Counted from the stretch's first letter, positions 396-41,139 are shown. The stretch: DNA of 64,000 nt from Myxococcota bacterium (GCA_028278345.1 JANQEL010000227.1:43924-107923), one strand, 5' to 3'. Numbers and translations: made by a program. The notes: a model not told the origin generated them from the sequence alone.

Positions 396-617
396 ATGAA
401 GTAGACGTTCTTCTCCGGGTCCGAGAAGGAGTTTCGAACGTCGCGCTGCCCGCGCCGAGCGATCCGATGGATCACCCGGCACGGCGCCGAGCGCGACGGT
501 TCTCCTCCCCACCGAGCCCCGGCGCAGACGCCTGCGGCGCACTCGGTCCGCGCGCCGCAGGGACGGCCGCGGCAACACGTGCTGTTTGCCTTCGGGGAAA
601 CGAGGAGAACAACCCAG

Positions 618-1439
618 ATGAGCCATATCGCTCGCCGGGCGCGCCGCAGCGCCCTTCACCGCATCGTCACACTATTCGCCCTGGCCACCCTCGGCGTCGC
701 CGCCACCACGGCACAGGCGACCACGGTCAACTTCGACAGCTTTGCTCTCGACCCGAGCGGCTACTACAACGGCAGTGATCTCGCCGGTGGTTTCACCATC
801 GGCAACGCCGATTTCACGAACAACTTCACCGACTTCGGTGGAGGTTGCTGTTGGGATGGCTGGTCCGTCTCGAACCACGGCGACATCAGCACCCCCGGCT
901 TCGGCAACCAGTACAGCTCGTACACCGGCGGCGGCGTCGGGGGGAGCAGCAACTTCGGTGTTGGCTTCACCGACTCCGCGGACATCACCCTCAACGGCGC
1001 CACGGCGGTCACCGGCGCCTACCTCACCAACACCACCTACGCCGCGCTCTCGATGTTGAACGGCGACGCCTTCGCGAAGCAGTTCGGGGGGGCCTCGGGA
1101 ACCGATGCCGATTGGTTCAACGTCACGATCGAGGGGAAGCTCGGCGGCGCGTCGACGGGGAGCGTGGTCTTCTACCTGGCCGACTATCGATTCGCGGATT
1201 CGGCCGACGACTACATCATCGATGAGTGGACCTGGGTGGATCTTTCTTCCCTCGGGACCATCGACGAGCTCGACTTCACCTTCGGCTCTTCGGATGTCGG
1301 GACCTTCGGGATCAACACCCCGACCTATGTCGCGATCGATTCGCTCACGTCCGTTCCCGAGCCCGGCAGCGGAACGCTTCTGGCCTGCGGAGTCGCGCTA
1401 CTCGCGGGTCGACGGCGCAGTTCGATCCGACGCTCGTAG
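618..1439 (+). CDS. Secreted DUF4465-like protein with C-terminal PEP-CTERM sorting signal
   Basis: ATG at 618 is preceded by AGGAGA. The signal peptide is MSHIARRARRSALHRIVTLFALATLGVAATTAQA. The Gly/Asn/Trp-rich body (CCWDGWSVSN, DWFNVTIEG, FYLADYRF) resembles DUF4465. The C-terminus is VPEPGSGTLLACGVALLAGRRRS. Confidence 0.8.
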   Translation: MSHIARRARRSALHRIVTLFALATLGVAATTAQATTVNFDSFALDPSGYYNGSDLAGGFTIGNADFTNNFTDFGGGCCWDGWSVSNHGDISTPGFGNQYSSYTGGGVGGSSNFGVGFTDSADITLNGATAVTGAYLTNTTYAALSMLNGDAFAKQFGGASGTDADWFNVTIEGKLGGASTGSVVFYLADYRFADSADDYIIDEWTWVDLSSLGTIDELDFTFGSSDVGTFGINTPTYVAIDSLTSVPEPGSGTLLACGVALLAGRRRSSIRRS

Positions 1440-2393
1440 GGCGTGACGCAGACGACGTAGTACGCCGCGGCGCGGTGCATAGACCTGCACCGCGCCCGGT
1501 GGACGCGTCTTGAATCGACGGTGGCTCCAGATCCACTGCTCGGGTGCAGCGCGGATCGCGGCTTCGATCGCGGCGTTCATGCGCGCGACGTTGATCGCGA
1601 GCGCCTTCTCGCGCGCCTGCCCTTCGGGCTCGAACTCGAGGGGCGGGCCGATGCGCGCGGTGTGTCGCCCGCTGCGCCCATCGCGAAAGAAGAAGACGGG
1701 AACGACGGGAGCTCCGCGCGTCATCGCGAGCTGCGCGGGACCGCTTCGCGTGCAGGCCTGGATGCCGAGGAAGGGGGCGTACACGCCTTCCTCTTCGCTC
1801 GCGTTCTGGTCGAGCAGCAGCGCCACGTAGCGCCCGCGCGAGAGCGCGCGGAAGATGCCCAGGGCTGCACGCCCCATGGCGAGGGGCTCGAGGCCATTCG
1901 CTTCGCGCCAACCCGTGACGATGCGATCGATCTCGGCGTTTGCGAAGGGATGTTGAACGACGCTCACCGGCAGGCCGTGGTGTGCGAGGGCCGCCGCACA
2001 GAACTCCCAGGAACCGAAGTGGGCGGTCAGAACGAGCGCACCCGCTTTGCCCTGGTTGCGTTCGAGGGCTTCGAGGTTCTCGCGCCCCTCGATGCGGACC
2101 CGCTCGAAACCCGCGCGCGAGGGAAGCGCAACCATGCGAGCGAGTTCGGCGAAGCTGCGACCGAGGTTCGCGAAGCTCCCCTGGAGGATGCGCCTCCGCT
2201 CGGCTTCGTTCTTTTCGGGAAAGGCGAGACGCAGGTTCGCGCGGGCATCCCGGGTGCGCGGGCCACCGAACAGCGCATAGCTTCGAGCGAGGGCCGCGCA
2301 GAGTTCGCGAGCGAAGTTCGCGGGCAGGTGCCCTACGAGGTGAAGAGCGCCTCGTAGCCCGCCTGCGATCATGCGATCTGCGCTGCTCACCAC
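1398..2393 (-). CDS. LpxL/HtrB-family lipid A biosynthesis (lauroyl/myristoyl-type) acyltransferase
   Basis: LTAHFGSWEF matches the H(F/L)GNWE catalytic motif of late lipid A acyltransferases. It is about 331 aa and is the last gene of the 14278-1398 operon. Its 3' end overlaps the convergent 618-1439 gene by 42 nt. Confidence 0.75.
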   Translation of the reverse strand: MVSSADRMIAGGLRGALHLVGHLPANFARELCAALARSYALFGGPRTRDARANLRLAFPEKNEAERRRILQGSFANLGRSFAELARMVALPSRAGFERVRIEGRENLEALERNQGKAGALVLTAHFGSWEFCAAALAHHGLPVSVVQHPFANAEIDRIVTGWREANGLEPLAMGRAALGIFRALSRGRYVALLLDQNASEEEGVYAPFLGIQACTRSGPAQLAMTRGAPVVPVFFFRDGRSGRHTARIGPPLEFEPEGQAREKALAINVARMNAAIEAAIRAAPEQWIWSHRRFKTRPPGAVQVYAPRRGVLRRLRHALRASDRTAPSTRE

Positions 2394-2417
2394 TTCGCCC
2401 TCTTCTCTCCGCGCGCG

Positions 2418-2816
2418 CTACGGGGTCGTCGATTCCTCGCGCTTGCGTGTGAAGCGCACCCCCGTCCAATCCAGCACACCCGCAATCGGTCGGGGCTTGC
2501 GAACTGTCATCGTCACGAAGTCGATCGGGAAGCGATCGAAGAGCGCGTCGGCGATGCGCTGGCCCAGCGCTTCGACAAGCTTGTGCTCGCGACCGCCCGC
2601 GACCTTCTCCACCACCTCGTACACCTCACCGTAGTCGACGGTGTGGGTGAGATCGTCCGAACGACCGGCCTGCGTGAGATCGAAGCCGAGTTCGAGATCG
2701 AGGCGCACGGGCCTTCTCATCCGTCTCTCGGCCTCGCTGACGCCGAGGGCCGAAGGCACCTCGATGCCTTCCAGAAGGATCACGTCGGGTTCTCGTTCGC
2801 GGCTGCGCTCGCTCAT
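2418..2816 (-). CDS. folB: Dihydroneopterin aldolase family protein (FolB-like)
   Basis: 132 aa. ILLEGIEVPSALGVSEAERR...VDYGEVYEVV...LVEALGQRIADAL is a typical FolB/tunnelling-fold pattern. It starts 12 nt after the ACC stop. Confidence 0.75.
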   Translation of the reverse strand: MSERSREREPDVILLEGIEVPSALGVSEAERRMRRPVRLDLELGFDLTQAGRSDDLTHTVDYGEVYEVVEKVAGGREHKLVEALGQRIADALFDRFPIDFVTMTVRKPRPIAGVLDWTGVRFTRKREESTTP

Positions 2817-2828
2817 GGCGGTACGACG

Positions 2829-5800
2829 TTACCGCGCTGCGGGCGAATCCAACATCGCGCGCAATTCCGCGATCAGCATGGAGCGCATCGCCTCGGGCTC
2901 GATGATCCGCTCGAGGGAGCCGACTTCGCGCGCGCGCTCGACGCTGTGGATCTCGTCGAATTCGGTGGCGAGCTCCGCCTGCTTCTCGAGGGTGACGTTT
3001 TCGATCATCGAGTCGAGGGCCTCACGCGCTTCGGTGGTGCCGCGTACGCGCAGCTCGCGCTCGCAACGCTTCACGCGCTCGTCGGCGAGGACGCGCACGC
3101 GGACGTCCCGCGCGAACACGACCTTGGCCGCGGGGCCACCGCCGATCACCGACGCGTAGGAGCCCGAGAGCGCGAACGCCTTCATCGAATCGTTGAGCTC
3201 CTGCGAGAAGACCACGTAGGCACCGCCGTGATAGCGCGACACCACCTGGAAGAGCAGCGGCCCTTCGAAGTTCACCACGGCAGTCGCGATCTCGGCGCCG
3301 TATTCGAGCTGCAGCTTGCGCAGGCTCTCGGGCGAACCGTCGAAGCCGGAGAGGTTCGCGAGCACCACCACCGGGCGACGGCCGCTCGCTGCGTTGATGG
3401 CACGCGCCACCTTCTTCGACGAGAGCGGGAAGAGCGTCCCGCCCGTCCACGATTCCGGTCCATCGAAGGGGCGATAGCCGTCGCGCGGCACGTTCTGGCT
3501 CTCGATTCCGATCACCGTCGTCGGCATGCCGCCGAGATGGGCGTCCCACACGATCGCGGTCTCGGCGCCCACCATCTGTCGCCAGCGTTCGAGATAGCCG
3601 CCATCCTGATCGATCACCGCCTTCATTACGCTGCGCATGTCGAAGGGGCGCTTGCGACCGGGGTTCGTCTCGTCGTTGAAGATCTCCCCCACGGTCTTGA
3701 AGTCGGAGCCCTCTTCCGCCGAGATCTCGACCTCGCACACCGAGCGATCGTCGGCGTCGGTAGTCTCGAACGAGCGCGGGCGGACTTCGTCGGGCGCCAC
3801 GTAGGTGTAACGGTAGTACTCGAACAGGGTCTGATAGGCCTCGGCGAGGTTGCGCGCGTAGTACTGCGCCTGGCCGTTCGGGCCCATGATGCGCTCGTAG
3901 CCGCCAATGGCCTCTTCGCTCTCGGCCGCGACCGCACCCGAGGCTTCGAGGGCCGCGCGACCGGTGAGCACCATCGAGGCGTGGGGCGTCATGATGAGGG
4001 CACCGCGGGTGTGCATCAGCATGGTGGCCAGCGCGTCGAAGTAGCTCTGCGCACCGACGTTCGTGCCCTGCACGATCAGGTTGATCTCACCACCGGCCTG
4101 GGTGAAGTTGACGATGCGCCGCACGACCCGCGCCGTCGCGTCGAGGTTCTCGGTGCCGCTGTCCATCGCGATCTTCGCGCCACTCGAAACCGGCACCCAT
4201 TCGAAGGGCACGCCGAGTTCTTCCGCGAGATCGAGGCCGGCGACCAGGCGATCGCACTCGGGGATCGAGAGCGCACCCATGCCGAGGGTCGGATCCGAGA
4301 GCGCGAGCACGCGCTTCATGCCTTCGGGGTGCTTGTCGGTCGGCGTCGAGATCACACCGAACACGACGCCCGCCGTGTTGGTTCCGGGTACGCGTTCGAT
4401 CGGAACGGCCCGCGGTGTCTGGGCCGATTCGTCGAGGTCGTACTCGACGAAAGTGCCGCGTGGGATGCCGCTCGAGCCGTTGCTGCGATTCGAACCGTGC
4501 GCGACCTCTTCCGTCACCTCGTCGGTGATGCGGCCTTCTTCGTCCGTCGTCAGCATGCTGATGACTTCGTAGGGGTAGACCCAACGCCTTCGGCGCGCGG
4601 CCACCACCTTGCGCTCGTAGTCGCCGGCGGGGCGCAGCGGCTCGTCGTGGGGTTCGCGCCAGGAGATCTCCATCTGCGGGCCCGTGTCGGTGATCACGAC
4701 TTCCAGAGCCTGCGCGGGGGCGTCGGGGGTTTCGGGATCGAGCTGCTGCAACCGCACGGTCACCTTCTCGAGGCCGAGATGGCGGGTCGCCGGCAGCAGG
4801 CGTCGCGCGAGCTTCGCCGCGGTGTCGCTGTCGATGACGATCGCGGGCGCGACGGCGATCGAGATCCGGTTCCACTGCAGGCGACGGCGCGGATCGCGGG
4901 TCTGCAACACGGTGCGCAGGCTACGCGCCGCACGGTGGAAGACGCGAACGAACGCGGGGATGCGCTTCTCCGCGTCCGCGGTCGCACCGGGGGAACGATC
5001 CCGCGCGTCGGCGAGCACGAACACCCGCTCGTCGCCGGGTTCTTCGCGGCTGCGGCCGTAGAAGGTGTAGATGCCTTCTTCGCCCGGCAGGCGTTCGAGT
5101 TCGAAATTGTCCAGGCGCGCGAGCGCAATGCGATCCGCGGTCTCGGGGTGCATTTCGTGCAGGCGCGTGTTCTCGCCGAACCCCTGGCCATCGCTCGCGG
5201 CTTCGAAGGTCTTGCACTGATCGTTGCCATCGTCCTGGATGAACCCCGTCACGAGACGACACGGCAGCGCGCTTCCCTCGAGTTCAGCGGCGACGCGCGA
5301 AGCGATTCTCTCGGCTTCCCCTTCGCCTTCGGGAAGGGATACGAGCAGTTCCATCGAGTGCGCGCGTTTGTCGCCACCCTGGGTGAGCCGCTCGGTAGCG
5401 CCCACGAGCGCCTTGGCGACCGCTTGCGGCGCATCCTTCTCACCCGGTGTAGCTGCGACGACGAGGCCGACGTCGGGATACTCGAAACAGAGCACGCGAA
5501 TGCCATCGCGCTTGATGAAGCTGCGCTGGCTCGGGATCGCGGGGGAGTAGACGCGCTGCACATGGGCCGCGAGGGCGATCTCGCGCAAGCTCGGGTCCGT
5601 CGCAGCGAGCCAGTTGCCCACGCGATCGAAGACACGCCTGGCCGCCGCGGCCACTTCGAGCATCACGCCCGCCGACGGTTCGCTGGGCCTGCTCTTGCTC
5701 TCGCTCTCGCGCAACCAGTTCTCGAGGTCGCGCGAGCGCTGCTCGGCCGCCTTCTCGACCTCGCGCTTCTCGAAGAGCACGTAGTTGGCTTCGTGGGAAG

Positions 5801-8486
5801 CGTCGGCGATGGTGTCCGAGAGCCGGCCGCGCATGCGCGTGATGCGGATCAATGTGCCCGAGAGCTTCGCGTCCTTGTCGAACTCGATGCCCGCTTCAGC
5901 CAATGCCGTCAAGTGACGCAGCACGGCGAGCACGAGGCGCAGGCGCAGACCCGTTTCGACCTGCGATGCGAAGAGCCGGAGCACGGCGCGCTCGAGGGCG
6001 TCGCTCGGTTCGAGCTGCTTGACGTCGTAGTGCGCGAGCGCGCGGCGAACGAGATCGAGGAATTCTTCGGCGATGCCGGCACCCTCGGCGCGCAGGCGTC
6101 GCACGAACATGCGGAAGCGCGCTTCGTTCGAGGGCCCGAGGTCACCCGAGATCGAGGCGCGGGGCGCGCTGATGAACATCTCTTCGGTGTCGACGAAACT
6201 CGAGAGCGCGTCGCGGATGCGCGAAAGCTGTTCGAGGAAGCCCAGGGAAACGCCTTCGGGGATCGGCGCTTCGAGGAAGGCGACGAGGCGTTCGCTGCGC
6301 TCGGGGTTGGCGTCGAAGCCGAGGAGCACGCGCCGCACCTCTTCGAGCACCGAATCGATCGCGGCCTTGCGGGCCGAGCGTTCCGCCCGATCGGCCGAAA
6401 CCAGATCGGGGTTGCCGAGGGGATCGTCGCCGTCGGGCTGGAAGAGCAGTGCGAGGGGATCGGTCTGCTCGGGCAACTCGATGCGCGAGCTCGCGCCGGC
6501 GCCGTCTTCGTCGTCCTTCGCCGGCTCGATCACGAGCAGCACTTCGCCCGCGCTCACCTGCTGGCCTTGACGTACGCGCACCTCGCTCACCACCCCGGAG
6601 ACCGGCGCGTTGAAGGCGATCTCCATCTTCATCGCTTCGACGAGGCCCAGCGGTTGGCCGGCCTGGACGGTGTCGCCTTCCTTCACCTGCACGGCGACCA
6701 CCATCGCGGGGGTGCCCGAAAGCACCTGCCCCGCGGTCTGCCAGCTGTAGCGATAGGGGTGGCCGTCGATCTCGATGCGCAGGCCGAGGTCGGAGGCGTC
6801 GTAGAGGATGCGGCGCACGCGGTCGTCGATTTGCAGGCGCGCGCGGTTCTGCCCCTCTTCACTCATGTAGGCGCCGACCACGCGCCCATCGAGATGCACG
6901 CGATAGCCCCACGCGCCGGTCGCGTAGACGGTGGTGCGGTAGCTCTCGCCCTCGAAGCTCACGTCGATCTGCTGGCCGGTGGAAGCGGGTATGCGTTCGG
7001 GCGCGATGCGCGAGACGTCGGAGTAGAAGTTGAGACGCGCAGCGGCGCGGCGGCGCTGATACGCGAGGATTGCCGCGGCTACGAAGGCGTCGCGCGCGGT
7101 CGGGTCGTCGGTCTTCGAAGCGGGGCGTTCGCGCCGATCGAGCCAGCCGGTATCGACGGCGCCGCCGCGATACTCGGGGCTGTTGAGCACTTCGAGCAGA
7201 TAGCCGCGGTTCGTCGCGCCGCCTTCGATCACGACTTCCATGTCGTGCAGCACGCACTCGAGTCGTGCGAGCGCGTCGTCGCGATCATCGCCGATCGCGA
7301 TCACCTTGGTGACGAGGGAGTCGAAATCCGGCGGCACGGTGCTCCCGGCCAACACCCCCGAATCGATTCGCACCCGCGGGCCCATGGGCGGCTCGAAGCG
7401 AACGATGCGCCCGGGCGAAGGCAGGAACCCCTGGTCGGGATCTTCCGCGCAGAGGCGGGCTTCGATCGCGACCCCTCGTTCGTTGATCTCGACGTCCTTG
7501 ATCGACTCGCCGCGGGCGATGCGGATCTGCAGCTGGACGAGATCGATGCCCGTGATCTCCTCCGTGATGCCGTGCTCGACCTGGAGGCGTGGATTCACTT
7601 CGAGGAAGTAGAAGTGATTGCCCTGGAGCAGGAACTCGACGGTCCCCACACCGGAGTAGTTGACGTGCGAAGCGATGCGCACCGCGGCCGCTTCGATGTC
7701 GGCGCGCAGCTCTGCCGAGAGATCCGGCGGCGGCGCTTCTTCGAGCACCTTCTGATGGCGGCGCTGCACCGAACAATCTCGCGAGCCGACCGCGATCACG
7801 CTGCCGTGGAGGTCGGCGGCGATCTGGACCTCGATGTGGCGGCCGTTCTGCACGCGCTGTTCGAGAAAGAGGCGATCGTCACCGAAGGCGCCCTTCGCTT
7901 CGGCCGCAGCCGAGCGGAAGCCTTCGGCGAGCTCGTCCTCGCAGTCGATCATGCGGATGCCGCGACCACCGCCACCGGCCGTGGCCTTGATGACGACGGG
8001 GAAACCGATCTTGCGCGCGTGTTCGAGGGCTTCGTGTTCGTCCTTCAGTTCGCCGCCGCTCCAGGGCGAAACGGGAACCTGGGCTTCTTCGGCGGCGAGC
8101 TTCGAAGTGATCTTGTCGCCGAGGGAGCGCATCGCGGCAGCAGTCGGGCCGAGGAAGACGATGCCGGCTTCGCTGAGCTTGTCGACGAAGTCGGGGCTCT
8201 CCGCGACGAAGCCCCAGCCGGGCCAGACGGCGTCGGCTTCGACCTGCCTGAGCGCGGCCAGCACGCCTTCGTGATCCAGATAGGCCGAGACGGCGCCACC
8301 GGGATGGGAGATCTCGATCGCGCGATCGGCCTGACGCACGAAGGGAGCGTCGCGATCGGGGTGGGTGTAGAGGGCGACCACTTCGAGGTCGCTGCGCTCG
8401 TGGGCGCGCAGGCTCTTGACCGCGCGCACGCAGCGCATCGCGGCTTCGCCGCGGTTCACGATGGCGAGACGTCGAATTTCGGTCAT
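2829..8486 (-). CDS. Single-chain multidomain acetyl/acyl-CoA carboxylase (biotin carboxylase - BCCP - long central region - carboxyltransferase), about 1885 aa
   Basis: The N-terminus MTEIRRLAIVNRGEAAMRCVRA and GFPVVIKATAGGGGRGIRMI indicate an ATP-grasp biotin carboxylase. The biotinylation motif is EAMKMEIAF. The C-terminal half is carboxyltransferase-like (GGAYVVFS, SGFDGSPESLRKLQLEYGA). I chose the ATG at 8486 because it overlaps the upstream stop as ATGA. Confidence 0.9.
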   Translation of the reverse strand: MTEIRRLAIVNRGEAAMRCVRAVKSLRAHERSDLEVVALYTHPDRDAPFVRQADRAIEISHPGGAVSAYLDHEGVLAALRQVEADAVWPGWGFVAESPDFVDKLSEAGIVFLGPTAAAMRSLGDKITSKLAAEEAQVPVSPWSGGELKDEHEALEHARKIGFPVVIKATAGGGGRGIRMIDCEDELAEGFRSAAAEAKGAFGDDRLFLEQRVQNGRHIEVQIAADLHGSVIAVGSRDCSVQRRHQKVLEEAPPPDLSAELRADIEAAAVRIASHVNYSGVGTVEFLLQGNHFYFLEVNPRLQVEHGITEEITGIDLVQLQIRIARGESIKDVEINERGVAIEARLCAEDPDQGFLPSPGRIVRFEPPMGPRVRIDSGVLAGSTVPPDFDSLVTKVIAIGDDRDDALARLECVLHDMEVVIEGGATNRGYLLEVLNSPEYRGGAVDTGWLDRRERPASKTDDPTARDAFVAAAILAYQRRRAAARLNFYSDVSRIAPERIPASTGQQIDVSFEGESYRTTVYATGAWGYRVHLDGRVVGAYMSEEGQNRARLQIDDRVRRILYDASDLGLRIEIDGHPYRYSWQTAGQVLSGTPAMVVAVQVKEGDTVQAGQPLGLVEAMKMEIAFNAPVSGVVSEVRVRQGQQVSAGEVLLVIEPAKDDEDGAGASSRIELPEQTDPLALLFQPDGDDPLGNPDLVSADRAERSARKAAIDSVLEEVRRVLLGFDANPERSERLVAFLEAPIPEGVSLGFLEQLSRIRDALSSFVDTEEMFISAPRASISGDLGPSNEARFRMFVRRLRAEGAGIAEEFLDLVRRALAHYDVKQLEPSDALERAVLRLFASQVETGLRLRLVLAVLRHLTALAEAGIEFDKDAKLSGTLIRITRMRGRLSDTIADASHEANYVLFEKREVEKAAEQRSRDLENWLRESESKSRPSEPSAGVMLEVAAAARRVFDRVGNWLAATDPSLREIALAAHVQRVYSPAIPSQRSFIKRDGIRVLCFEYPDVGLVVAATPGEKDAPQAVAKALVGATERLTQGGDKRAHSMELLVSLPEGEGEAERIASRVAAELEGSALPCRLVTGFIQDDGNDQCKTFEAASDGQGFGENTRLHEMHPETADRIALARLDNFELERLPGEEGIYTFYGRSREEPGDERVFVLADARDRSPGATADAEKRIPAFVRVFHRAARSLRTVLQTRDPRRRLQWNRISIAVAPAIVIDSDTAAKLARRLLPATRHLGLEKVTVRLQQLDPETPDAPAQALEVVITDTGPQMEISWREPHDEPLRPAGDYERKVVAARRRRWVYPYEVISMLTTDEEGRITDEVTEEVAHGSNRSNGSSGIPRGTFVEYDLDESAQTPRAVPIERVPGTNTAGVVFGVISTPTDKHPEGMKRVLALSDPTLGMGALSIPECDRLVAGLDLAEELGVPFEWVPVSSGAKIAMDSGTENLDATARVVRRIVNFTQAGGEINLIVQGTNVGAQSYFDALATMLMHTRGALIMTPHASMVLTGRAALEASGAVAAESEEAIGGYERIMGPNGQAQYYARNLAEAYQTLFEYYRYTYVAPDEVRPRSFETTDADDRSVCEVEISAEEGSDFKTVGEIFNDETNPGRKRPFDMRSVMKAVIDQDGGYLERWRQMVGAETAIVWDAHLGGMPTTVIGIESQNVPRDGYRPFDGPESWTGGTLFPLSSKKVARAINAASGRRPVVVLANLSGFDGSPESLRKLQLEYGAEIATAVVNFEGPLLFQVVSRYHGGAYVVFSQELNDSMKAFALSGSYASVIGGGPAAKVVFARDVRVRVLADERVKRCERELRVRGTTEAREALDSMIENVTLEKQAELATEFDEIHSVERAREVGSLERIIEPEAMRSMLIAELRAMLDSPAAR

Positions 8487-9097
8487 GCCGCCACTCCTCG
8501 CGTTTCGACCGCGTAGGCGAGCCAATCGCCGTGATGGGAAAGCGAGAGACTCATGTCGAGGGGTTCTCCGTCGAGGCGGAGCTTCGGAATGCGTCCGCTC
8601 TTCGTGATGTCGACGCGGTTCGGGTCGACATCGAGTTGCTTCGCGAAGGCTTCGCGAGCGAGCTGGCGCACCTGCGTGCTCGGATCCCCTTCCGAGCCGC
8701 CCTCGGCGGTGCCGCGAGGCACGACTGCGCGGAGTACGTATGTGAAGTCACTCGGAGCCCGCGCAGCGAGGGCGTGCACGCGATCGCTCCCGGGTTCGAG
8801 CACCACGAGGAACTGCCCGCTCGTGTGCCGCACGGGCATCCAGGTCTCCGCCCAGCGCTTCTCGAACCACACCTCGAATGCGCGAGGTGAGAAGATCGTG
8901 CTCGGGTCTTCTTGCTTGGCGGCCTTGAAACACGCTTCCTTTGCGGCCCAGAGCTGCCAGCGCGTGGTCTTGCCGAGTTGGTCGCGCTCGATCGCAGCGC
9001 GCTCGGCGTCGCGAAACACGCGCGCGTCGAAACGCTGGCTGTACGTCGTGATGTCGGCGTCGACGTCATGGATGTCCACCACATCATTGCCGACCAT
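8483..9097 (-). CDS. 4'-phosphopantetheinyl transferase
   Basis: Starts MVGNDVVDIHDV (the GxDxxxI opening of PPTases) and contains WAAKEACFKA and SLSHHGDWLAYAV. About 204 aa. Its ATG at 9097 overlaps the PlsC-type gene, and its stop overlaps the ACC start (ATGA). Confidence 0.75.
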   Translation of the reverse strand: MVGNDVVDIHDVDADITTYSQRFDARVFRDAERAAIERDQLGKTTRWQLWAAKEACFKAAKQEDPSTIFSPRAFEVWFEKRWAETWMPVRHTSGQFLVVLEPGSDRVHALAARAPSDFTYVLRAVVPRGTAEGGSEGDPSTQVRQLAREAFAKQLDVDPNRVDITKSGRIPKLRLDGEPLDMSLSLSHHGDWLAYAVETRGVAA

Positions 9098-9848
9098 CGA
9101 AGTACGCCTCTTCCATGTTCGAGAGCCGCGCGAGCACCTGCTTGGCGAGATCGAGGGAGCGCCTTGCACCCTTGGCATCCGACTTGGGTTCGAAGCACTC
9201 CATCTCGACATGGAACGTGTCGCCCATGTTCGGAATGCTTCCCCAGGTCTCCTGGGTATCGCCGCGGGCATAGACGCAGAGCACCCGACAACCGGGAGTC
9301 GAATTGATGATGCGACCCACGCCCCAGGCGATCGACTCTCCCGTGACGCGACCCGTGCGACTGCGCGTGCCTTCCGGGAACACCATCGCGATCTCTCCCC
9401 GGTTCAGCAGATAGGTCACGCGCGAAAGCACCTGCCCCACCTGTTCCCGCTCCCCGCCACGCGAGATCGAAATGCACTTCGCGAGGAAGGTGAGAAGTCG
9501 CGTCATGTAGGTGCGCCCGAAGTTCTTTCGTTCGGGCGTGTTCCAGGCCAGGGCGTCGTAGTGGATCGAGTAGTACCACCAGGGCGCGAGGGCCCACGCG
9601 ACGATCAGCGAGTCGATCAGCGTCAGGTGGTTCGGGCAGATGAGCAGGGGCGCATCACTCTCTTCGCGCAACGCGCGAAAGCGCGCGCGAAGCGCCTTCG
9701 CATCTGCGATGCGGTAGCCGAGAATCCACCGCATGAAGAAGACGAGCGGACCGATCCAGAATGGAGCGACGAGCCGCCCCACTTCACGTTGGAACGCGTG
9801 ATGGAAGAGCACGCGACGGGATAGCCCCGTTGGCGCCGCCTTGCCCAT
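9084..9848 (-). CDS. PlsC-type lysophospholipid / 1-acyl-glycerol-3-phosphate acyltransferase
   Basis: The HX4D motif is NHLTLID and the second motif is VFPEGTRSRTGRV. 254 aa. Confidence 0.8.
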   Translation of the reverse strand: MGKAAPTGLSRRVLFHHAFQREVGRLVAPFWIGPLVFFMRWILGYRIADAKALRARFRALREESDAPLLICPNHLTLIDSLIVAWALAPWWYYSIHYDALAWNTPERKNFGRTYMTRLLTFLAKCISISRGGEREQVGQVLSRVTYLLNRGEIAMVFPEGTRSRTGRVTGESIAWGVGRIINSTPGCRVLCVYARGDTQETWGSIPNMGDTFHVEMECFEPKSDAKGARRSLDLAKQVLARLSNMEEAYFDGRQ

Positions 9849-9873
9849 GCGAGCCTCCGAAGTCGCTACCGGC

Positions 9874-10122
9874 TCAGCCGAGCTTCGAGGCGATCAGCGT
9901 GACGGCGTCGCCGACGGTGTTCACCGAATCGACGTCCTCGTCGGCGATCTCGATGTCGAACTCGTCCTCGAATGCGATCACGACGTCAACCAGCCGCGCC
10001 GAGTTCACCTTCAGGTCTTCGAGGATGTTCGTATCCATCGACACCGAGGCGAGGGCATCTTCGTTCTTCACCCACGGCGTGAGGATCTTGACGACTCCTT
10101 CCATCACTTCCGACTGTTCCAT
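9874..10122 (-). CDS. Acyl carrier protein (divergent)
   Basis: 82 aa. LEDLKVNSARLVDVVIAFEDEFDIEI is an ACP helix II pattern, but with NSA in place of the canonical DSL. GGAGG sits 4 nt upstream of the ATG. Confidence 0.85.
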   Translation of the reverse strand: MEQSEVMEGVVKILTPWVKNEDALASVSMDTNILEDLKVNSARLVDVVIAFEDEFDIEIADEDVDSVNTVGDAVTLIASKLG

Positions 10123-10188
10123 GACTCCTCCAATTGGCAGATTTTCGAGATTGAGTTGGCGCGTCGCGCAGGGGAGATCGGGCTCCGC

Positions 10189-11460
10189 CTACGCTTCCCA
10201 CTTCTTGTAGATCACGCAGGCGTTCACATCGCCGAAGCCGAAGCTCGACTTGGCGAGGATCTTCATGTCCGGCGCATCGCCGCCCTCGTGGGGGATCGAC
10301 TGGGCGTAGGGCTGGATCTCATCGTGGACGTCTTCGCAGTTGATCGCGGGCTGCACGAAGCCGCCCTTCAGCATCAGGACGGAGGCCACCGACTCGAGAC
10401 CGCCGGCCGCGCCGAGGGCGTGACCCACGAGGGACTTCGTTGCGGTGATGGTCGGGAAGTCATCCGGCGCGCGGTCGAGCCCGCGCGACCAGGAGCCGAT
10501 CTCCTTCGGGTCGGCACCCGTCGCGGTGAGGTGGCCGTTGATCACGTCGACCTGCGAACCGTCGATCTTCGCGTCGGCGAGTGCCGTCTTGATGCAGCGC
10601 ACCACGCCTTCGGGGTTCGGCGCCGTCATGCTGCCGCCGGTGCGGTGGCCGCCGCAGTTCACGGCCGACCCGAGCACTTCGGCGTAGATCTCGGCGCCGC
10701 GCGCTTCCGCGCTCTCGAGACTCTCGAGCATCAGCATGCCCGCACCCGAACCCGGAATGAAGCCCCCCGCCGATGCGCTCATCGGGCGCGACGCCTTCTC
10801 GGGTTCGTCGTTGAAGTCGCGGCACAAGACGCGCATCGCGTCGAAGCCCGCCCAGATGTAGTGGCTGGCCGCTTCGGCTCCACCGCAGATCATGCGCTCG
10901 GCGAGGCCCGCGCGAATGCGTTCGACCCCCATCGAAACGGCTTCGGTGCCGGTGCTGCACGCACTCGAGTTCGTCGTGACCTGGTTACCGAGGGCGAGCT
11001 GCCCCGAGACACGCGCCGAGATTCCGCTCGCCATCACCTGCTCGACCGAGGTCGAGCCCAGGCGGCGGATCTTCTTCTGGTCGGTGAGCGGCACGACCTT
11101 TTCCGCCGTCGTATCCATGCCGCCGATCCCGGTGCCGAGGATCGCGCCGGTATCCCAATCGACGTCGCTTTCGAGCTCGGGCACCTCCAGCTCCGCGCTG
11201 CGCCAGGCTTCGACCGCGGCCAGGCTCGCGTAGCGATGGCTCATGTTCATCGCGAGCAGTTCGTCTTCGCGGAAGGTGGCTTCGGCCAACTCGTCGACGC
11301 CCTCGGGCGTACCGGCAACGCGACAACCGAACTTGCAGTCTTCCATGATCGCCTGATAGCGGATCCCGGACTGTCCCTTCCGCAGCGCCGATTCGAAGGC
11401 GCTGATGCCGTTGCCGTTCGGCGCGATCACGCCGAGACCCGTCACGACTACTCGTCTCAT
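10189..11460 (-). CDS. Beta-ketoacyl-ACP synthase I/II (FabB/FabF family)
   Basis: Starts MRRVVVTGLGV. The Cys-His-His triad contexts are NSSACSTG, NGHLTATG and KSLVGHALGAAG. The start overlaps the upstream stop (ATGA at 11457-11460). Confidence 0.9.
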   Translation of the reverse strand: MRRVVVTGLGVIAPNGNGISAFESALRKGQSGIRYQAIMEDCKFGCRVAGTPEGVDELAEATFREDELLAMNMSHRYASLAAVEAWRSAELEVPELESDVDWDTGAILGTGIGGMDTTAEKVVPLTDQKKIRRLGSTSVEQVMASGISARVSGQLALGNQVTTNSSACSTGTEAVSMGVERIRAGLAERMICGGAEAASHYIWAGFDAMRVLCRDFNDEPEKASRPMSASAGGFIPGSGAGMLMLESLESAEARGAEIYAEVLGSAVNCGGHRTGGSMTAPNPEGVVRCIKTALADAKIDGSQVDVINGHLTATGADPKEIGSWSRGLDRAPDDFPTITATKSLVGHALGAAGGLESVASVLMLKGGFVQPAINCEDVHDEIQPYAQSIPHEGGDAPDMKILAKSSFGFGDVNACVIYKKWEA

Positions 11461-11915
11461 CGTGGAACTCCCATTCCCGACAGCACTCCCGAACACACCA
11501 CGGTACCGTCGTCGAGCGTCATCTCTACTTCGCAGCGAAGCTTCTTGCGGCGGAACATGCTCTTTCGCGCGGTGGTGGTCACGCGATCGCCCGGTTTCAC
11601 GATGCCCGAGAAATCGACCTGGGCGTCGGTGAACAGCGTGATGAGCTTCTCGACCTCTTCCGCCGAGTGCTCGGCGGCGTAGAGGTAGATGCCGTACGCC
11701 ACGACCCCGGCCTGGGCCATGGTCTCGATCAGGATCACCCCCGGCGTCACGGGGTTGCCGGGGAAGTGACCGCGATAGAAATCCTGGTCTTCGCGAAAGG
11801 TGTACCGCGCCACGATGTGATCGGGGTCGAGCTCCACGATCTCGTCGATGAAGCGGAAGGGTTCCTGTTGGGGGACCCTGGCGAGCACTTCTTCGTGGCT
11901 GAGCAGATCACCCAC
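11457..11915 (-). CDS. FabZ-like 3-hydroxyacyl-ACP dehydratase (hotdog fold)
   Basis: FYRGHFPGNPVTPGVILIETMAQAG is the FabZ active-site pattern. 152 aa. The GTG start overlaps the FabG stop by 8 nt. Confidence 0.8.
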   Translation of the reverse strand: MGDLLSHEEVLARVPQQEPFRFIDEIVELDPDHIVARYTFREDQDFYRGHFPGNPVTPGVILIETMAQAGVVAYGIYLYAAEHSAEEVEKLITLFTDAQVDFSGIVKPGDRVTTTARKSMFRRKKLRCEVEMTLDDGTVVCSGVLSGMGVPR

Positions 11916-12636
11916 CGTACATGCCTCCGTTGACGTGCACGACCGTGCCGTTGATGTAACTCGCGCGCGTCGAGAGATAGGCGACCACGTCGGCGACTTC
12001 GTCTGCCGTTCCCATGCGGCCCTGCGGAATCCGCGAGAGGATCTGTTCCTTGACCTCGTCGGGAAGCTCTTCCGTCATGTCGGTGTCGATGAAACCGGGG
12101 GCGACGGAGTTCACCAGGATCTCGCGGCCGGCGAGCTCCTGGGCCAGCGACTTCGTGAAGGCGTCGAGCCCGGCCTTCACCATCGTGTACGGCACCTGAC
12201 CGGGGTTGCCGGTGTGCCCCACCACGCTCGAGATGTTCACGATGCGGCCGGTTCCCTTTCGCATCATGAAGCGTCGCAACACCATCTTCGAGAGATACCA
12301 GGTACCGCGAGCCACCTGGGCCACCGAATCGTATTGCTCGAGGTTCATCGTCAGCATCGGGGCGTTGACGTTGTAGCCCGCATTGTTGACCAGCACGTCG
12401 ACGCGACCGGCCACCTCCTTCAACTCCTTCACCATCGCGTCGATGGCGTCGGAATCGGAGAGATCGGCGCGCACGCCGAAGCCGTCGGGCAACTCGGCGA
12501 TCAGCTTCTTCGCCTTCTCCTCGCTCGAGCGATAGTGGACGCCCACGCGAAAGCCCTCTTCCGCGAGTCGTCGGCAGCAGGCTGCACCGATCCCGGTGCC
12601 GCCCCCCGTCACGAGTGCCACCGCGGCCTCGCTCAT
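11908..12636 (-). CDS. fabG: 3-oxoacyl-ACP reductase (SDR, FabG-like)
   Basis: Contains VTGGGTGIGAA, NNAG and YTMVKAG (YxxxK). 242 aa. The ATG at 12636 overlaps the FabA stop (ATGA). Confidence 0.9.
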   Translation of the reverse strand: MSEAAVALVTGGGTGIGAACCRRLAEEGFRVGVHYRSSEEKAKKLIAELPDGFGVRADLSDSDAIDAMVKELKEVAGRVDVLVNNAGYNVNAPMLTMNLEQYDSVAQVARGTWYLSKMVLRRFMMRKGTGRIVNISSVVGHTGNPGQVPYTMVKAGLDAFTKSLAQELAGREILVNSVAPGFIDTDMTEELPDEVKEQILSRIPQGRMGTADEVADVVAYLSTRASYINGTVVHVNGGMYGG

Positions 12637-13235
12637 CGATCGTCCCTCCCGCCGTGGGCGTGTTCCGAAGCCAGGGGATAGTCGCCGTAGTCGATGCCGG
12701 TGAAGGTGCCGACGCGCGCCTTCTCGATGCGGTAGATCTCCTGATCGTCGACCAGCACGCGCGCGTTGCCGACCGCCATCGAGGCGCCCTGGGTTTCGAG
12801 TTCGGTGTAGCGGCGCACGTCGATCTCGTAACGCACGAGTTTGTCGTAGGGCCGGATCTGCCCCATGAAGTCGACTTCGCCCACGCCGAGAGCGCGACCG
12901 GTTCCCGGCCCACCGCGCCAGACGCAGTAGAAGCCGAGCAACTGCCACACGGCATCGAGGCCGAGACAGCCCGGCTGCACCGGATCGCCGTTGAAGTGGC
13001 AGTGGAAGAACCAATCGTCGAGACCTACGTCGGCTTCCGCAACGATGCGCCCGCGCGCCTTGTTGGCTTCGATCTCGGTCACGCGATGGAACATCATCAT
13101 CGGCGGAGTCGGGAGCCGCGCGCGAAAGCTCTCCGGCGGATCCTTCACCAGGCGGCCATAGGCAAAGGCCAGCAGTTCGGCACGATCGAAGTGATCGCGG
13201 CCGCGAAATTCTTCATACGTGATCGGGTTGGTCAC
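12633..13235 (-). CDS. fabA: FabA-type 3-hydroxyacyl-ACP dehydratase/isomerase
   Basis: FFHCHFNGDPVQPGCLGLDAVWQLLGFY closely matches the FabA signature FFxCHFxxDPVMPGCLGLDAxWQL. I chose the GTG at 13235 because it overlaps the KAS III stop (GTGA). The longer ORF runs to 13286. Confidence 0.8.
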   Translation of the reverse strand: MTNPITYEEFRGRDHFDRAELLAFAYGRLVKDPPESFRARLPTPPMMMFHRVTEIEANKARGRIVAEADVGLDDWFFHCHFNGDPVQPGCLGLDAVWQLLGFYCVWRGGPGTGRALGVGEVDFMGQIRPYDKLVRYEIDVRRYTELETQGASMAVGNARVLVDDQEIYRIEKARVGTFTGIDYGDYPLASEHAHGGRDDR

Positions 13236-14278
13236 GCTGCCCCTCCCGACGACGCGCGATTGAACCGCAACAGATATCGCCCCCACGTCAGTCCCGACCC
13301 GACACCCACCAGCGCGATGTCATCGTCGGCGTTCCACTTGCCCCAGTTCTGCGACACGACCGATGCACTGCTCGCGCCGCCGGTGTTGCCATACCAGTCG
13401 ACGTTGAAGTGATGGCGCTCTTCGGGAATGTCGCACCGGTTGCAGACGTTTTCGAGCATCCGGAGGTTCGCCTGGTGGCCGATGAAGTGCAGGCGTCGGC
13501 CCTCTTCGGCGTATTCCTCTTCGAGGGCGCGATAGCCCGCGATCGTCTTCTTGATCGCGAACATCTGCACCGTGCGCCCTTCCTGCTCGAAGAAGCCGAG
13601 GCGTGGGATCACCACCTTGTCCTGCCCGGCGGGATTCGACGCGAGATTGCTGCCCAGCACCGTCGCCGCACCCGGGTTTCGCGTCGAAAAGACCGCCGCC
13701 GCTGCGCCATCGCCCCAGAGCACCGCCGAGTTGCGGTCCGAGTAGTCGATGGTTCGCGTCATGACTTCGGCGGCCACCACCAGCACGAAATCGGGCAATG
13801 CGCCCTCGTCCATCATGGAGAGCATGCGGACCGCCGCGAAGTAGCTGGTGCAGGCCGAAGCGACGTCGAAGGCCGGGGCTTCGATGCCCAGCAGATCGGC
13901 GACACGCGCGCCCTCCGCCGGGATCGCGTAATCGGGGGCACAGCCCCCGCCGATCACCATGCCGATCTGGTCCGCCGTCACGCCTGCGCGCTCGAGGGCC
14001 ATCCTGGCCGCTGCGGCGCCCATCTCGGCGTTCGACACCTCGGCCACCGCGATCCCCTCGCGCGGATCGCGATTCTTCGTTTGTGCGATGTAGTCGAGGG
14101 GGAGCCCCGTGCGCCGCGAGCGAATTCCGACGCGATCCATGATCCAGTCGTCACTCGTCTCGATCTCGAGGCTCTCGAGAAAGGCGTTGGTGATCTCGTT
14201 GGGCGGGTGGAAGTGCCCGATCCCGTGGAGTTGAAGACTCACTTCGCGCACCCCCCATTCATCTGAGGCACTCCACAT
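13232..14278 (-). CDS. Beta-ketoacyl-ACP synthase III family (FabH-like)
   Basis: The Cys-His-Asn contexts are ASACTSYFAA, IGHQANLRM and YGNTGGASSASV. 348 aa as the ORF is drawn, and the exact start is uncertain. It is the first gene of the operon. Confidence 0.8.
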   Translation of the reverse strand: MWSASDEWGVREVSLQLHGIGHFHPPNEITNAFLESLEIETSDDWIMDRVGIRSRRTGLPLDYIAQTKNRDPREGIAVAEVSNAEMGAAAARMALERAGVTADQIGMVIGGGCAPDYAIPAEGARVADLLGIEAPAFDVASACTSYFAAVRMLSMMDEGALPDFVLVVAAEVMTRTIDYSDRNSAVLWGDGAAAAVFSTRNPGAATVLGSNLASNPAGQDKVVIPRLGFFEQEGRTVQMFAIKKTIAGYRALEEEYAEEGRRLHFIGHQANLRMLENVCNRCDIPEERHHFNVDWYGNTGGASSASVVSQNWGKWNADDDIALVGVGSGLTWGRYLLRFNRASSGGAA

Positions 14279-14439
14279 CTCATGCCGCTTGATCGCGGTG
14301 AGATGGTGCGCGTTCGGGACTCAGAGTCATTGTTTGACGGCACGGAGTTCTGCTGGAGCACGAGCGCTGACAAGAGGGGCCACTCCACACCACGTCAAGC
14401 GTGGCTCATTGAACGCACAAACTAGCCTGAAAGGCGAAA

Positions 14440-14466
14440 GGGCTTTGCAAACCTCCTGCAAAACCC
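14440..14466. promoter_or_regulatory. Imperfect inverted repeat GGGCTTTGCA-N7-TGCAAAACCC in the AT-richer leader of the lipid operon
   Basis: The 10-nt arms match at 9 of 10 positions. It lies about 165-190 nt upstream of the KAS III start, in the lowest-GC stretch of the 14279-14642 intergenic region. Confidence 0.3.
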
Positions 14467-14642
14467 AGCATTCGTAATGTGTTTTTCGATCGGGTCGGAC
14501 GAGCCCCGACTCGGGTCGCTGCATCGCGATACTCGAGGGGGCTGGGTGGACGCGGCTTGCTTGGGTGGGAGATCCGGTCGGGGGTGACCGCGCAGGCGCG
14601 TCGCGAGGAGGCGGCAGCTTACCATGTGAGATTCCGGATATC

Positions 14643-17720: not shown

Positions 17721-17969
17721 TCAACCGCCGGCGAGGGCGGGAAGAAAGTGCACCTCGCTGCCATCCGGCACGGGTTCGAAGAGCGGATCCGCGACCATCT
17801 CGCCGTCGATGGCGACCGCGAACTTGTCACCGAGGCGTTCTTCGAAGCCCGGGTAGCGCGCTTCGATCGCGCGGATCACGGCGCGCACGGTACCGGCCTC
17901 GACTTCGAGGGTCGTCTGACCGTCGACATGGGATTGGAGTCGCGAAGGAACGCTGACCGTGCAGCTCAT
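17721..17969 (-). CDS. MoaD/ThiS-family ubiquitin-fold sulfur-carrier-like protein
   Basis: 82 aa ending ...HFLPALAGG with a terminal Gly-Gly. The ATG at 17969 overlaps the stop of the Mo-hydroxylase large subunit (ATGA). Confidence 0.7.
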   Translation of the reverse strand: MSCTVSVPSRLQSHVDGQTTLEVEAGTVRAVIRAIEARYPGFEERLGDKFAVAIDGEMVADPLFEPVPDGSEVHFLPALAGG

Positions 17970-20230: not shown

Positions 20231-20359
20231 GGATGACGACTCCCGTGGCGGTGTAGATCTTTCGCGGATCCGAGTAAGCTTGGCGGACTCAATTCCCGCG
20301 TCAACGTTCGCGGGTTGCGATTCGCGCCCGCCCACTCCCGCACACGGAATTCACCTCCC

Positions 20360-21226: not shown

Positions 21227-21238
21227 GCGAAGGACGAC

Positions 21239-21718
21239 ATGCCGAAGACCCACATCACGACCCGCATCAACGACGACGAAGTCGAGTTCCTCTGCGAGCC
21301 GCGCCAGACGTTGCTCGAAGTCCTTCGCGAAGAACTCGGCCTTACGGGTACCAAGGAAGGTTGCGGTACCGGCGATTGCGGTGCGTGCTCGATCACCCTC
21401 GACGGCCGCCTCGTCTGCGCTTGTCTCGTCCTCGCCGTCGAAGCCCAGGGTCGGGAGATCGGCACCGTCGAAGGGGTCGCCGATGGGGACACGCTCCATC
21501 CGCTGCAGGCGAAGTTCCTCGAACACGCGGCGCTGCAGTGCGGCATCTGCACGCCGGGGTTGATCGTCGCCGCGAAGTCCCTGCTCGAACGCAACCCCGA
21601 TCCCAGCGAAACGGAGATCCGCTACTGGCTCGCGGGCAACCTCTGCCGCTGCACGGGCTACGACAAGATCATTCGCGCCGTGCAGGATGCGGCGAGCGAG
21701 CTGCGCACCTCTCAGTAG
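21239..21718 (+). CDS. [2Fe-2S]-binding small subunit (CoxS/XdhC-iron-sulfur-like) of the Mo hydroxylase
   Basis: Contains GCGTGDCGACSI, CGICTPG and CRCTGY. 159 aa. Confidence 0.9.
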   Translation: MPKTHITTRINDDEVEFLCEPRQTLLEVLREELGLTGTKEGCGTGDCGACSITLDGRLVCACLVLAVEAQGREIGTVEGVADGDTLHPLQAKFLEHAALQCGICTPGLIVAAKSLLERNPDPSETEIRYWLAGNLCRCTGYDKIIRAVQDAASELRTSQ

Positions 21719-22799: not shown

Positions 22800-22811
22800 G
22801 CAAACCTCCGA

Positions 22812-23693: not shown

Positions 23694-23757
23694 GATGTCT
23701 CCTGATTCGCGGGCGCAACCCAGGAAACAGCAAGTTCCGTGCCGCCGGGCACGCAAC

Positions 23758-41114: not shown

Positions 41115-41139
41115 CGCGCCTTCCCTCACGGAGACGAAA

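Follow-up and report, generated by a model that had tools for sequence, protein, structure and literature searches.

The stretch of DNA analysed here (the window) is a 64-kb segment from a Myxococcota bacterium (GCA_028278345.1 JANQEL010000227.1:43924-107923; positions are counted from its first letter) with a G+C content of ~66%. At 1398-14278 its minus strand carries a compact string of eleven open reading frames (ORFs) encoding, in order of transcription, an initiating beta-ketoacyl-acyl carrier protein synthase (KAS III), a FabA-type dehydratase/isomerase, a FabG-like reductase, a FabZ-like dehydratase, an elongating beta-ketoacyl-acyl carrier protein synthase (KAS), an acyl carrier protein (ACP), an acyltransferase of the glycerol-3-phosphate acyltransferase (GPAT)/acylglycerol-phosphate acyltransferase (AGPAT) superfamily, a 4'-phosphopantetheinyl transferase (PPTase), a single-chain acetyl-CoA carboxylase (ACC), FolB and an LpxL-family acyltransferase (Table 1). 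The block had been outlined in a first-pass annotation of the window, and all eleven ORFs were recovered where it had placed them, with Pfam backing for each assignment. A filter on third-codon-position G+C (GC3) chose ten of the eleven as likely coding frames; the FabG ORF was absent from the filtered list and its coding call rests on Pfam and NCBIfam matches. The start/stop overlaps described in that annotation proved exact in the sequence, namely ATGA at 8483-8486, 11457-11460 and 12633-12636, GTGA at 13232-13235, an 8-nt overlap at 11908-11915 (GTGGGTGA) and a 14-nt overlap at 9084-9097 (ATGGTCGGCAATGA). The widest gap, between the KAS and ACP genes, is 66 nt, the remaining gaps measure 25, 12 and 24 nt, and GGAGG-like ribosome-binding sites precede most of the starts. 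For the KAS III gene the GTG at 14242 is a more probable start than the ATG at 14278, which lies 12 codons further upstream, because the N-termini of its relatives align at the GTG. The motifs NHLTLID, HFGSWE and KVNSARL, which had been singled out earlier, were all present in the translations, and the block indeed lacks FabD, an enoyl reductase and a thioesterase. Outside the block, Pfam searches of the 64-kb window revealed no canonical fab cluster or acc genes, no RNA family was found inside the operon using Rfam, and a scan for terminators gave no excess over shuffled sequence. A gene for a DinG-like exonuclease/helicase lies upstream on the same strand, separated from the block by 364 nt.

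Table 1. Genes of the operon and candidate regulatory elements, in window positions
Feature	Position	Strand	Support
KAS III (FabH-like initiating ketosynthase)	13232..14278	-	Pfam ACP_syn_III and ACP_syn_III_C; Cys-His-Asn motifs in translation
FabA-type 3-hydroxyacyl-ACP dehydratase/isomerase	12633..13235	-	Pfam FabA, 137 bits
FabG-like 3-ketoacyl-ACP reductase (short-chain dehydrogenase/reductase, Y-x3-K)	11908..12636	-	Pfam adh_short and KR
Non-canonical FabZ-like dehydratase, bulky Val71 in acyl tunnel	11457..11915	-	Pfam FabA-like domain, 62 bits
Elongating KAS (Cys-His-His)	10189..11460	-	Pfam ketoacyl-synt N and C
ACP of distinct family, Ser41	9874..10122	-	Pfam PP-binding, 26.9 bits
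GPAT/AGPAT-superfamily acyltransferase (HX4D = NHLTLID, plus FPEGTRS)	9084..9848	-	PF01553, 44.5 bits
AcpS-like PPTase with inserted segment, 204 aa	8483..9097	-	Pfam ACPS (PF01648)
Single-chain eukaryote-type ACC, 1885 aa	2829..8486	-	Pfam BC, BCCP (biotin_lipoyl), ACC_central, Carboxyl_trans
FolB (dihydroneopterin aldolase)	2418..2816	-	Pfam FolB; TIGR00525, 89 bits vs 72 (passes)
LpxL-family (lipid A late) acyltransferase, 3' end of gene string	1398..2393	-	PF03279; HFGSWE in translation
Near-palindrome TGACTCTGAGTC, window copy of candidate operator	14318..14329	-	Aligns with TTGAC-N6-TGACTCnnAGTCATAAT of relatives
Direct repeat TTTGCA-N5-TTTGCA, DinG/KAS III intergenic, candidate regulator site	14446..14462	-	Single copy in window; conserved in relatives

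Conservation of the block was assessed by scanning one genome per species with an alignment of acyltransferase homologues, and the best 80 loci were kept out of at least 238 species genomes encoding acyltransferase relatives. These loci derive from Myxococcota-type metagenome-assembled genomes (MAGs), Longimicrobiales, Binatia and single Holophagae and Opitutales bins, all uncultured, and protein searches with the acyltransferase, ACC and ACP returned matches solely from uncultured MAGs. The window proteins were located by tblastn in the same gene order in 80 of 80 loci. The junctions are also tight: that between the acyltransferase and PPTase genes has a median of -14 nt and is 20 nt or shorter in 99% of 70 loci, and a spacer of ~74 nt always precedes the ACP gene in relatives. 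By order and by junctions, the block thus passed the comparison with related genomes that the first-pass annotation had proposed.

Gene presence was counted in the 63 loci that cover the whole interval between the KAS III and PPTase genes. Six genes, encoding KAS III, the FabZ-like dehydratase, KAS, ACP, the GPAT/AGPAT-type acyltransferase and the AcpS-like PPTase, form an invariant core present in 63 of 63. Around it, FabA is found in 55 of the 63 loci (missing from one sub-lineage), ACC in 50 (missing from the Longimicrobiales loci), a FabI/FabL-like enoyl reductase that the window does not have in 46, and FabG in 42; an LpxL-type gene accompanies at least 21, none of them of Longimicrobiales type, and FolB at least 19, the last two counts being lower bounds as some loci end before those genes. 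The eleven-gene unit of the earlier description therefore stands as a conserved, tightly coupled operon, and its composition is better given as a six-gene core with optional modules. FabA, FabG and ACC are dispensable in some lineages, as reflected by the layouts: enoyl reductase with FabA and FabG (19 loci), enoyl reductase with FabA but no FabG (19 loci, taking in all Longimicrobiales, which also lack ACC), FabA with FabG but no enoyl reductase (15 loci, the window's own layout), enoyl reductase with FabG but no FabA (8 loci) and FabA only (2 loci). As the Longimicrobiales core is without FabG or ACC, it is not a self-sufficient fatty acid synthase (FAS) there. A tblastn search with E. coli FabD gave no match in the window or in the 80 loci with flanks of up to 10 kb per side. 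The varied loss of enoyl reductase, FabG, FabA or ACC, together with a FabD that is never linked, is the pattern expected of a system leaning on a primary FAS. The FolB, LpxL-type and DinG-like genes look like lineage-specific synteny; FolB, found in 23 of the 80 loci and missing from those of the L001 type, is probably a co-oriented neighbour outside the lipid function.

Three observations on the related loci are recorded here. On L083, a 6.25-Mb contig of complete-genome size, the operon lies near the replication origin, with dnaA ~7 kb away (3781-17084 and 22494-24122), and the synteny of a thiamine pyrophosphate-enzyme gene and the DinG-like gene is kept. In two Binatia loci (L053, 4295-10597; L066, 9914-16216) a translationally coupled acyltransferase-ACC gene pair with a gap of 3-4 nt occurs without FAS, ACP or PPTase genes and adjoins family-2 glycosyltransferase genes and an O-antigen-ligase-like gene. 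Several records carrying a Myxococcota-type operon (L008, L014, L016, L017, L022, L030, L031 and others, including isolate HK-STAS-MYXO-51) were deposited as 'Spirochaetaceae bacterium', which looks like a systematic taxonomy mislabel.

The enoyl reductase of the relatives is in many loci the first gene of the operon. It encodes a 324-aa short-chain dehydrogenase/reductase whose best NCBIfam match is the enoyl-ACP reductase FabL and to whose C-terminal half E. coli FabI aligns; its active-site spacing is Y-x6-K, which we take to be typical of FabI/FabL, whereas the FabG-like protein of the window has Y-x3-K. An orthologue of this enzyme was not present in the 64-kb window, and tblastn of E. 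coli FabI against the window and the 80 loci matched nothing beyond the operon's own enoyl reductase. A second short-chain dehydrogenase/reductase of the window (40936-41889) was considered as a displaced copy and rejected as an orthologue, being only 27% identical to the operon-type enzyme. A chemistry that dispenses with enoyl reduction, as the gene content of the window had implied, does not hold for the family, since most relatives' operons carry the FabI/FabL-like enzyme; for the same reason the ancestral chemistry appears to be an ordinary saturating FAS elongation cycle.

The enzymes were placed using the NCBIfam profile hidden Markov models (HMMs), a comparison that had been recommended with the original description. 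FabH, FabG, FabZ, FabF and AcpP models matched proteins of the block, but the ACP, KAS, KAS III, FabG-like and FabZ-like proteins all remained below the housekeeping equivalog cut-offs, and only FolB and one FabA model passed. KAS III scored 211 bits (cut-off 249) and 180 bits (cut-off 292) against FabH models, the FabG-like protein 255 bits against TIGR01830 (cut-off 298) and the FabZ-like dehydratase 78 bits (cut-off 113) and 74 bits (cut-off 155) against FabZ equivalogs. For the ACP all matching AcpP models were below cut-off, for example TIGR00517 (49 bits vs 70). The KAS reached 294 bits against FabF TIGR03150 (cut-off 494) and 254 bits against FabB NF005935 (cut-off 630) and aligned with solved FabF and FabB chains at ~190 bits each, so that by HMM and PDB scores it appears equidistant from the two. 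FabA fitted the good signature attributed to it earlier: it reached NF003509 (205.5 bits vs 124), although it missed TIGR01749 (175 vs 238), and it aligned with E. coli FabA through the active-site stretch CHFxGDPVxPGCLGLDAxWQ. E. coli AcpP used as a tblastn query did not detect the block ACPs in the window or the 80 loci at E<1e-4. The sub-cut-off scores and this non-detection therefore point to a distinct paralogous set.

The ACP belongs to a distinct family. Its Ser41 aligns with the serine of the DSL motif of B. subtilis ACP, within a site, DLKVNSARLVD, in which N-S-A-R replaces D-S-L-D. The deviation at KVNSARL reported in the first-pass annotation is therefore real, and since 76 of 76 orthologues, from different phyla, share the whole site unchanged, it is a family signature, not decay. 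Relatives number 2271 in the metagenome protein collection, and with 60-90% identity across phyla the ACP represents a separate, strongly constrained family. The PPTase encoded downstream matches PF01648 at 40.5 bits (cut-off 25) over residues 2-62 only. Its N-terminus and a C-terminal motif resemble those of AcpS, but it contains an inserted segment and is 204 aa long, against ~120-130 aa for compact AcpS. AcpS models scored 20-23 bits (cut-offs 124-165), no meaningful sequence match was obtained among solved structures, and identity among relatives is 26-43%, marking a fast-evolving protein. The FabG-like protein is 63-87% identical among relatives.

The FabZ-like dehydratase is likewise non-canonical. 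Its best relative among solved structures is anammox amxFabZ (7qv0, 62.8 bits), ahead of canonical FabZ (~54 bits), and its Val71 aligns with amxFabZ Ile69, at which canonical FabZ has a conserved Gly. Among orthologues, 71 of 71 have V, I, M or L here. In amxFabZ the bulky residue at the Gly position narrows the tunnel and goes with poor turnover of long chains, and the enzyme works on its own amxACP, not on canonical ACP (PMC10139942).

Of the two acyltransferases, the GPAT/AGPAT-type enzyme is the sole off-loading enzyme found in every related locus, and no thioesterase accompanies it. It scored 25.7 bits against the AGPAT model TIGR00530 (cut-off 103). An AlphaFold model built with 29 homologues had a predicted local distance difference test score (pLDDT) of 84.6, and its best fold matches in the PDB were human GPAT1 (8e4y) and squash acyl-ACP GPAT (1k30). 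All 751 homologues come from uncultured bacteria labelled Myxococcota or Deltaproteobacteria. It is proposed to be the off-loading enzyme of the operon. The LpxL-type protein gave 188.7 bits against PF03279 (cut-off 22.3) and reached no specific equivalog (best TIGR02207, 142 bits vs 298); its gene is confined to Myxococcota-type loci, with 35-64% identity. On these family assignments lipid A is not supported as the main delivery route, because the invariant off-loading enzyme is of the GPAT/AGPAT type, not the LpxL type.

The ACC carries all the domains expected of a single-chain carboxylase, including an ACC_central domain (35.6 bits vs cut-off 23.2) and an EAMKM biotinylation motif, and is predicted to be an acetyl-CoA carboxylase. 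Its C-terminal 1225 residues matched fungal and human ACC carboxyltransferases at 49-77 bits and AccD/PccB-type subunits at 32 bits or less. The 120 best homologues listed were all from uncultured bacteria (59-87% identity). The domain content of the 'giant ACC' in the original description is thus borne out, and its type is a known one: a eukaryote-like multidomain ACC, SACE_4237, is the essential housekeeping carboxylase of Saccharopolyspora (PMC6491548). Both are ~200 kDa single chains with biotin carboxylase, biotin carboxyl carrier, central and carboxyltransferase regions, and the carboxyltransferase half of the block enzyme is nearest to eukaryotic ACC. They differ in setting: the block ACC is found in Myxococcota-type and Binatia genomes and is translationally coupled to FAS genes, whereas SACE_4237 is an actinomycete gene described as a stand-alone housekeeping ACC (PMC6491548). 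The Shewanella protein AccS, also a fusion, is of another kind, its domains being ordered differently (PMC11602165).

Relatives with the layout of the window have a sigma-70-like promoter, TTGAC-N6-TGACTCnGAGTCATAAT, upstream of KAS III, with a palindrome overlapping its -10 region; in the window the -10 element is degenerate. The palindrome was also found upstream of the enoyl reductase gene in several other layouts. The palindrome/promoter or the direct repeat was seen in L007, L010, L017, L031, L052, L056, L068 and L084-L094, and the direct repeat recurs at the corresponding position in L004, L007, L010, L017, L021, L030, L031 and L054. Each of the two elements occurs once in the 64-kb window. 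A search of metagenomes of the Joint Genome Institute (JGI) for the exact operator-promoter pattern gave 11 matches, 10 of them informative, and all 10 lie between the DinG-like gene and a KAS III or enoyl reductase gene, directly upstream of the operon. Because of this placement the operon is predicted to have its own conserved operator and the DinG-like gene to lie outside it. As a regulon scan, the same JGI search returned only copies ahead of this operon and gave no lead to fabD or to a regulator.

Taken together, these data lead us to favour, with somewhat better than even confidence, the reading of the operon as an orthogonal second type II FAS whose product is handed to a glycerolipid acyltransferase and which relies on FabD and enoyl reductase encoded elsewhere in the genome. 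From the signatures described above we infer orthogonality to a housekeeping FAS as well as the chain produced and its acceptor lipid, and each step of the pathway is read from family membership. The AcpS-like PPTase would convert the ACP to its holo form at Ser41 of DLKVNSARLVD, the single-chain ACC would make malonyl-CoA, and a FabD encoded elsewhere would load malonate onto the ACP. KAS III would start the chain and the single KAS elongate it, each round being processed by the FabG-like reductase and the two dehydratases, the narrowed-tunnel amxFabZ-like enzyme and the true FabA, the latter of which could introduce a cis double bond. An enoyl reductase, supplied from the operon in most relatives and in trans in this genome, would end each round. 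The finished acyl-ACP is then expected to pass, with no thioesterase, straight to the co-translated GPAT/AGPAT-type acyltransferase, which would transfer the chain to glycerol-phosphate or to a lysolipid; the LpxL-type enzyme encoded downstream in this lineage may draw on that acyl-ACP as well.

Several features favour this second-FAS interpretation. Among them are the gene order and six-gene core kept across loci, the sub-cut-off scores of five proteins, the differing gene losses between lineages with FabD never linked, the Longimicrobiales version that is not self-sufficient, and the operator seen solely ahead of this operon. By analogy, the ACP and dehydratase signatures would find in the anammox proteins a documented precedent for carrier-protein discrimination (PMC10139942). 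The PPTase is dedicated, its gene overlapping the acyltransferase gene in nearly all loci, and the modelled acyltransferase fold is closest to GPATs, including the acyl-ACP-dependent plant enzyme. Against it stands that a primary canonical FAS in these genomes is an assumption, that product and acceptor are assigned by inference, and that the gene list (fabH, fabA, fabG, fabZ, fabF, acp, plsC-like, acpS-like, acc, lpxL) resembles a housekeeping inventory. Its location, too, is a conserved part of the core genome, where synteny with the DinG-like gene is kept and, in L083, dnaA is ~7 kb away. Protein conservation equals that of a housekeeping FAS, and the same ACC type is essential for housekeeping in Saccharopolyspora (PMC6491548). 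In addition, the Binatia acyltransferase-ACC pair without FAS genes may mean that the acyltransferase is independent of the special ACP.

The same points bear on the possibility that this is the sole housekeeping lipid operon, in which canonical fab, acpP, acpS and accABCD have been replaced, only fabD and an enoyl reductase lie elsewhere, and all acyl-ACP for phospholipid (PlsC-like) and lipid A (LpxL) synthesis is supplied from here. The genes do cover initiation, elongation, both dehydratases, ketoreductase, ACP, holo-ACP synthase, ACC and the glycerolipid and lipid A acyltransferases; with the enoyl reductase present in the operon of 46 of 63 relatives the FAS cycle is complete, and the very high conservation (ACP 60-90%, FabG 63-87%), the core-genome synteny near dnaA in L083 and the essential housekeeping role of this ACC type in an actinomycete (PMC6491548) all agree with such a function. 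However, five of the proteins miss the curated housekeeping cut-offs, and the ACP is without the near-universal DSL/helix-II pattern used by many partner enzymes. In FabA-less lineages the only dehydratase would be one with a bulky tunnel residue, when amxFabZ is poor on long chains (PMC10139942); the Longimicrobiales core, short of FabG and ACC, is not self-sufficient, and FabD is never linked to the operon. We therefore regard a sole-FAS role as unlikely, though as the most serious of the alternatives, and consider it rather more doubtful that Myxococcota-type lineages have no canonical FAS II at all and draw their whole membrane and lipid A acyl supply from a single regulated operon with a non-canonical ACP (N-S-A-R site), a remodelled AcpS, an amxFabZ-like dehydratase and a eukaryote-type single-chain ACC.

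A lipid A-dedicated system like rhizobial AcpXL/LpxXL, in which a special chain, for example a very long or hydroxylated one, is built on its own ACP and installed on lipid A by the LpxL-type enzyme as the main product, is suggested by the LpxL-family gene that ends the string here and in many Myxococcota-type loci. Like the AcpXL cluster, the operon also has an ACP, a dehydratase and a KAS of its own. We judge it improbable: the LpxL-type gene, at 21 or more of 63 loci and missing from those of Longimicrobiales type, is not invariant, its low identity (35-64%) is that of a syntenic neighbour, the invariant off-loading enzyme is of GPAT/AGPAT type, and there is one elongating KAS instead of two tandem FabF paralogues. 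Least credible is a type II polyketide-like or aryl-polyene-like cluster making a polyene as pigment or secondary lipid. The window does lack an enoyl reductase and the dehydratase of relatives has weak ApeI/ApeP-like Pfam matches, but the FabI/FabL-like enzyme (Y-x6-K) is the first operon gene in 46 of 63 relatives, a bona fide FabA is present, and a chain-length-factor partner, AMP-ligase, thioesterase, second ACP and exporter are all absent. For want of their defining parts, and given the enoyl reductase and the true FabA, the aryl-polyene/polyketide and polyunsaturated fatty acid (PUFA) synthase readings were set aside.

Compared with known systems, the operon shares with canonical type II FAS its enzyme families and visible catalytic motifs, and relatives bearing the enoyl reductase encode a full elongation cycle. 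It differs in that every component but FabA falls below the curated cut-offs, in the N-S-A-R of the ACP for D-S-L-D and the bulky residue for the dehydratase tunnel glycine, in never being linked to FabD, and in having ACC, PPTase and acyltransferase built in. The rhizobial acpXL-fabZXL-fabF2XL-fabF1XL-lpxXL cluster also has a dedicated ACP, dehydratase, KAS and LpxL-family acyltransferase in one string, but the operon has one KAS in place of two, keeps its LpxL-type gene outside the invariant core, and includes KAS III, FabA, PPTase, the GPAT/AGPAT-type acyltransferase and ACC. The mycobacterial FAS-II operon (fabD-acpM-kasA-kasB-accD6) resembles it in being an additional FAS that has a dedicated ACP and includes a carboxylase gene; that operon, however, carries FabD, has only the carboxyltransferase subunit, elongates FAS-I products and is without an acyltransferase or PPTase. 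Myxobacterial PUFA synthases, type I multidomain giants with tandem ACPs, include an AGPAT domain and have a PPTase encoded in the same cluster. They are likewise carrier-protein lipid synthases with their own PPTase and an off-loading glycerolipid acyltransferase, whereas the components of the operon are all discrete type II proteins.

The anammox amxACP/amxFabZ cluster, a candidate ladderane lipid pathway (PMC10139942), likewise has a dedicated second ACP and non-canonical FabZ beside a canonical set, and among solved structures the window dehydratase is nearest to amxFabZ, with which it shares the bulky residue at the Gly69-equivalent position. The partners in that cluster are amxACP, two FabF genes, a radical SAM enzyme and a phytoene-dehydrogenase-like gene (PMC10139942). 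None of these partners was found in the block, and amxACP was not among the best 60 solved ACP matches, so that the block ACP is not notably close to it. The operon adds KAS III, FabA, PPTase, acyltransferase and ACC.

No description of this cluster was found in the searchable literature. Dedicated ACP-centred side-lines of FAS (AcpXL, mycobacterial FAS-II, anammox) and the ACC type are already known; the combination of parts, the invariant ACP signature, the remodelled PPTase, the operator and the breadth in uncultured phyla are new.

The genes elsewhere in the window are those of an ordinary chromosome (rpoD, dnaG, his genes, a release factor and a xanthine-dehydrogenase-type enzyme). The gene downstream of the block is convergent and encodes a DUF4465 protein (579-1439, plus strand) with a PEP-CTERM-like sorting signal at its end. 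Directly upstream of it, at 202-401 on the plus strand, lies a cobalamin riboswitch (Rfam RF00174, 88.7 bits), a position which suggests B12-regulated expression of this DUF4465/PEP-CTERM surface protein. Just upstream of the DinG-like gene, 17966-21718 holds a divergent three-gene set for a molybdoenzyme of the xanthine-dehydrogenase/carbon monoxide-dehydrogenase type, with the large subunit on the minus strand and the flavin adenine dinucleotide and 2Fe-2S subunits on the plus strand. At 22029-23756 (minus strand) there are two adjoining proteins with weak matches to ferritin-like di-iron families (R2-like ligand-binding oxidase, phenol hydroxylase, aldehyde decarbonylase), the second having no Pfam family. 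Two further genes on the minus strand, both unlinked to the operon, encode a fatty acid hydroxylase-family protein with a weak OlsE-like match (48093-48995) and a double hot-dog MaoC/HadAB-like dehydratase (54799-55680).

Under either the second-FAS or the sole-FAS interpretation, the range of eukaryote-type single-chain ACC is extended beyond actinomycetes, and the conserved operator provides a handle for finding the regulator. Should the operon be the only FAS, it would mean that the AcpP-centred canonical machinery can be replaced wholesale. A bacterial contribution to eukaryotic lipid metabolism is often discussed for the Myxococcota. Were canonical FAS II truly missing from these lineages, a pathway that ranks among the most conserved in bacteria would have been replaced as a whole, and a eukaryote-like ACC would be found coupled to lipid synthesis in a phylum linked to eukaryotic lipid metabolism. 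If, as we favour, the operon is a second FAS, it would constitute a widespread uncharacterised lipid pathway with a new ACP family, a PPTase matched to it and an off-loading acyltransferase as part of the system; at least 238 species genomes would carry it, and metagenomic homologues number in the thousands. Such a system would offer an orthogonal ACP/PPTase/FAS toolkit for engineering, and it predicts an unrecognised class of membrane lipid in abundant uncultured Myxococcota and Gemmatimonadota.

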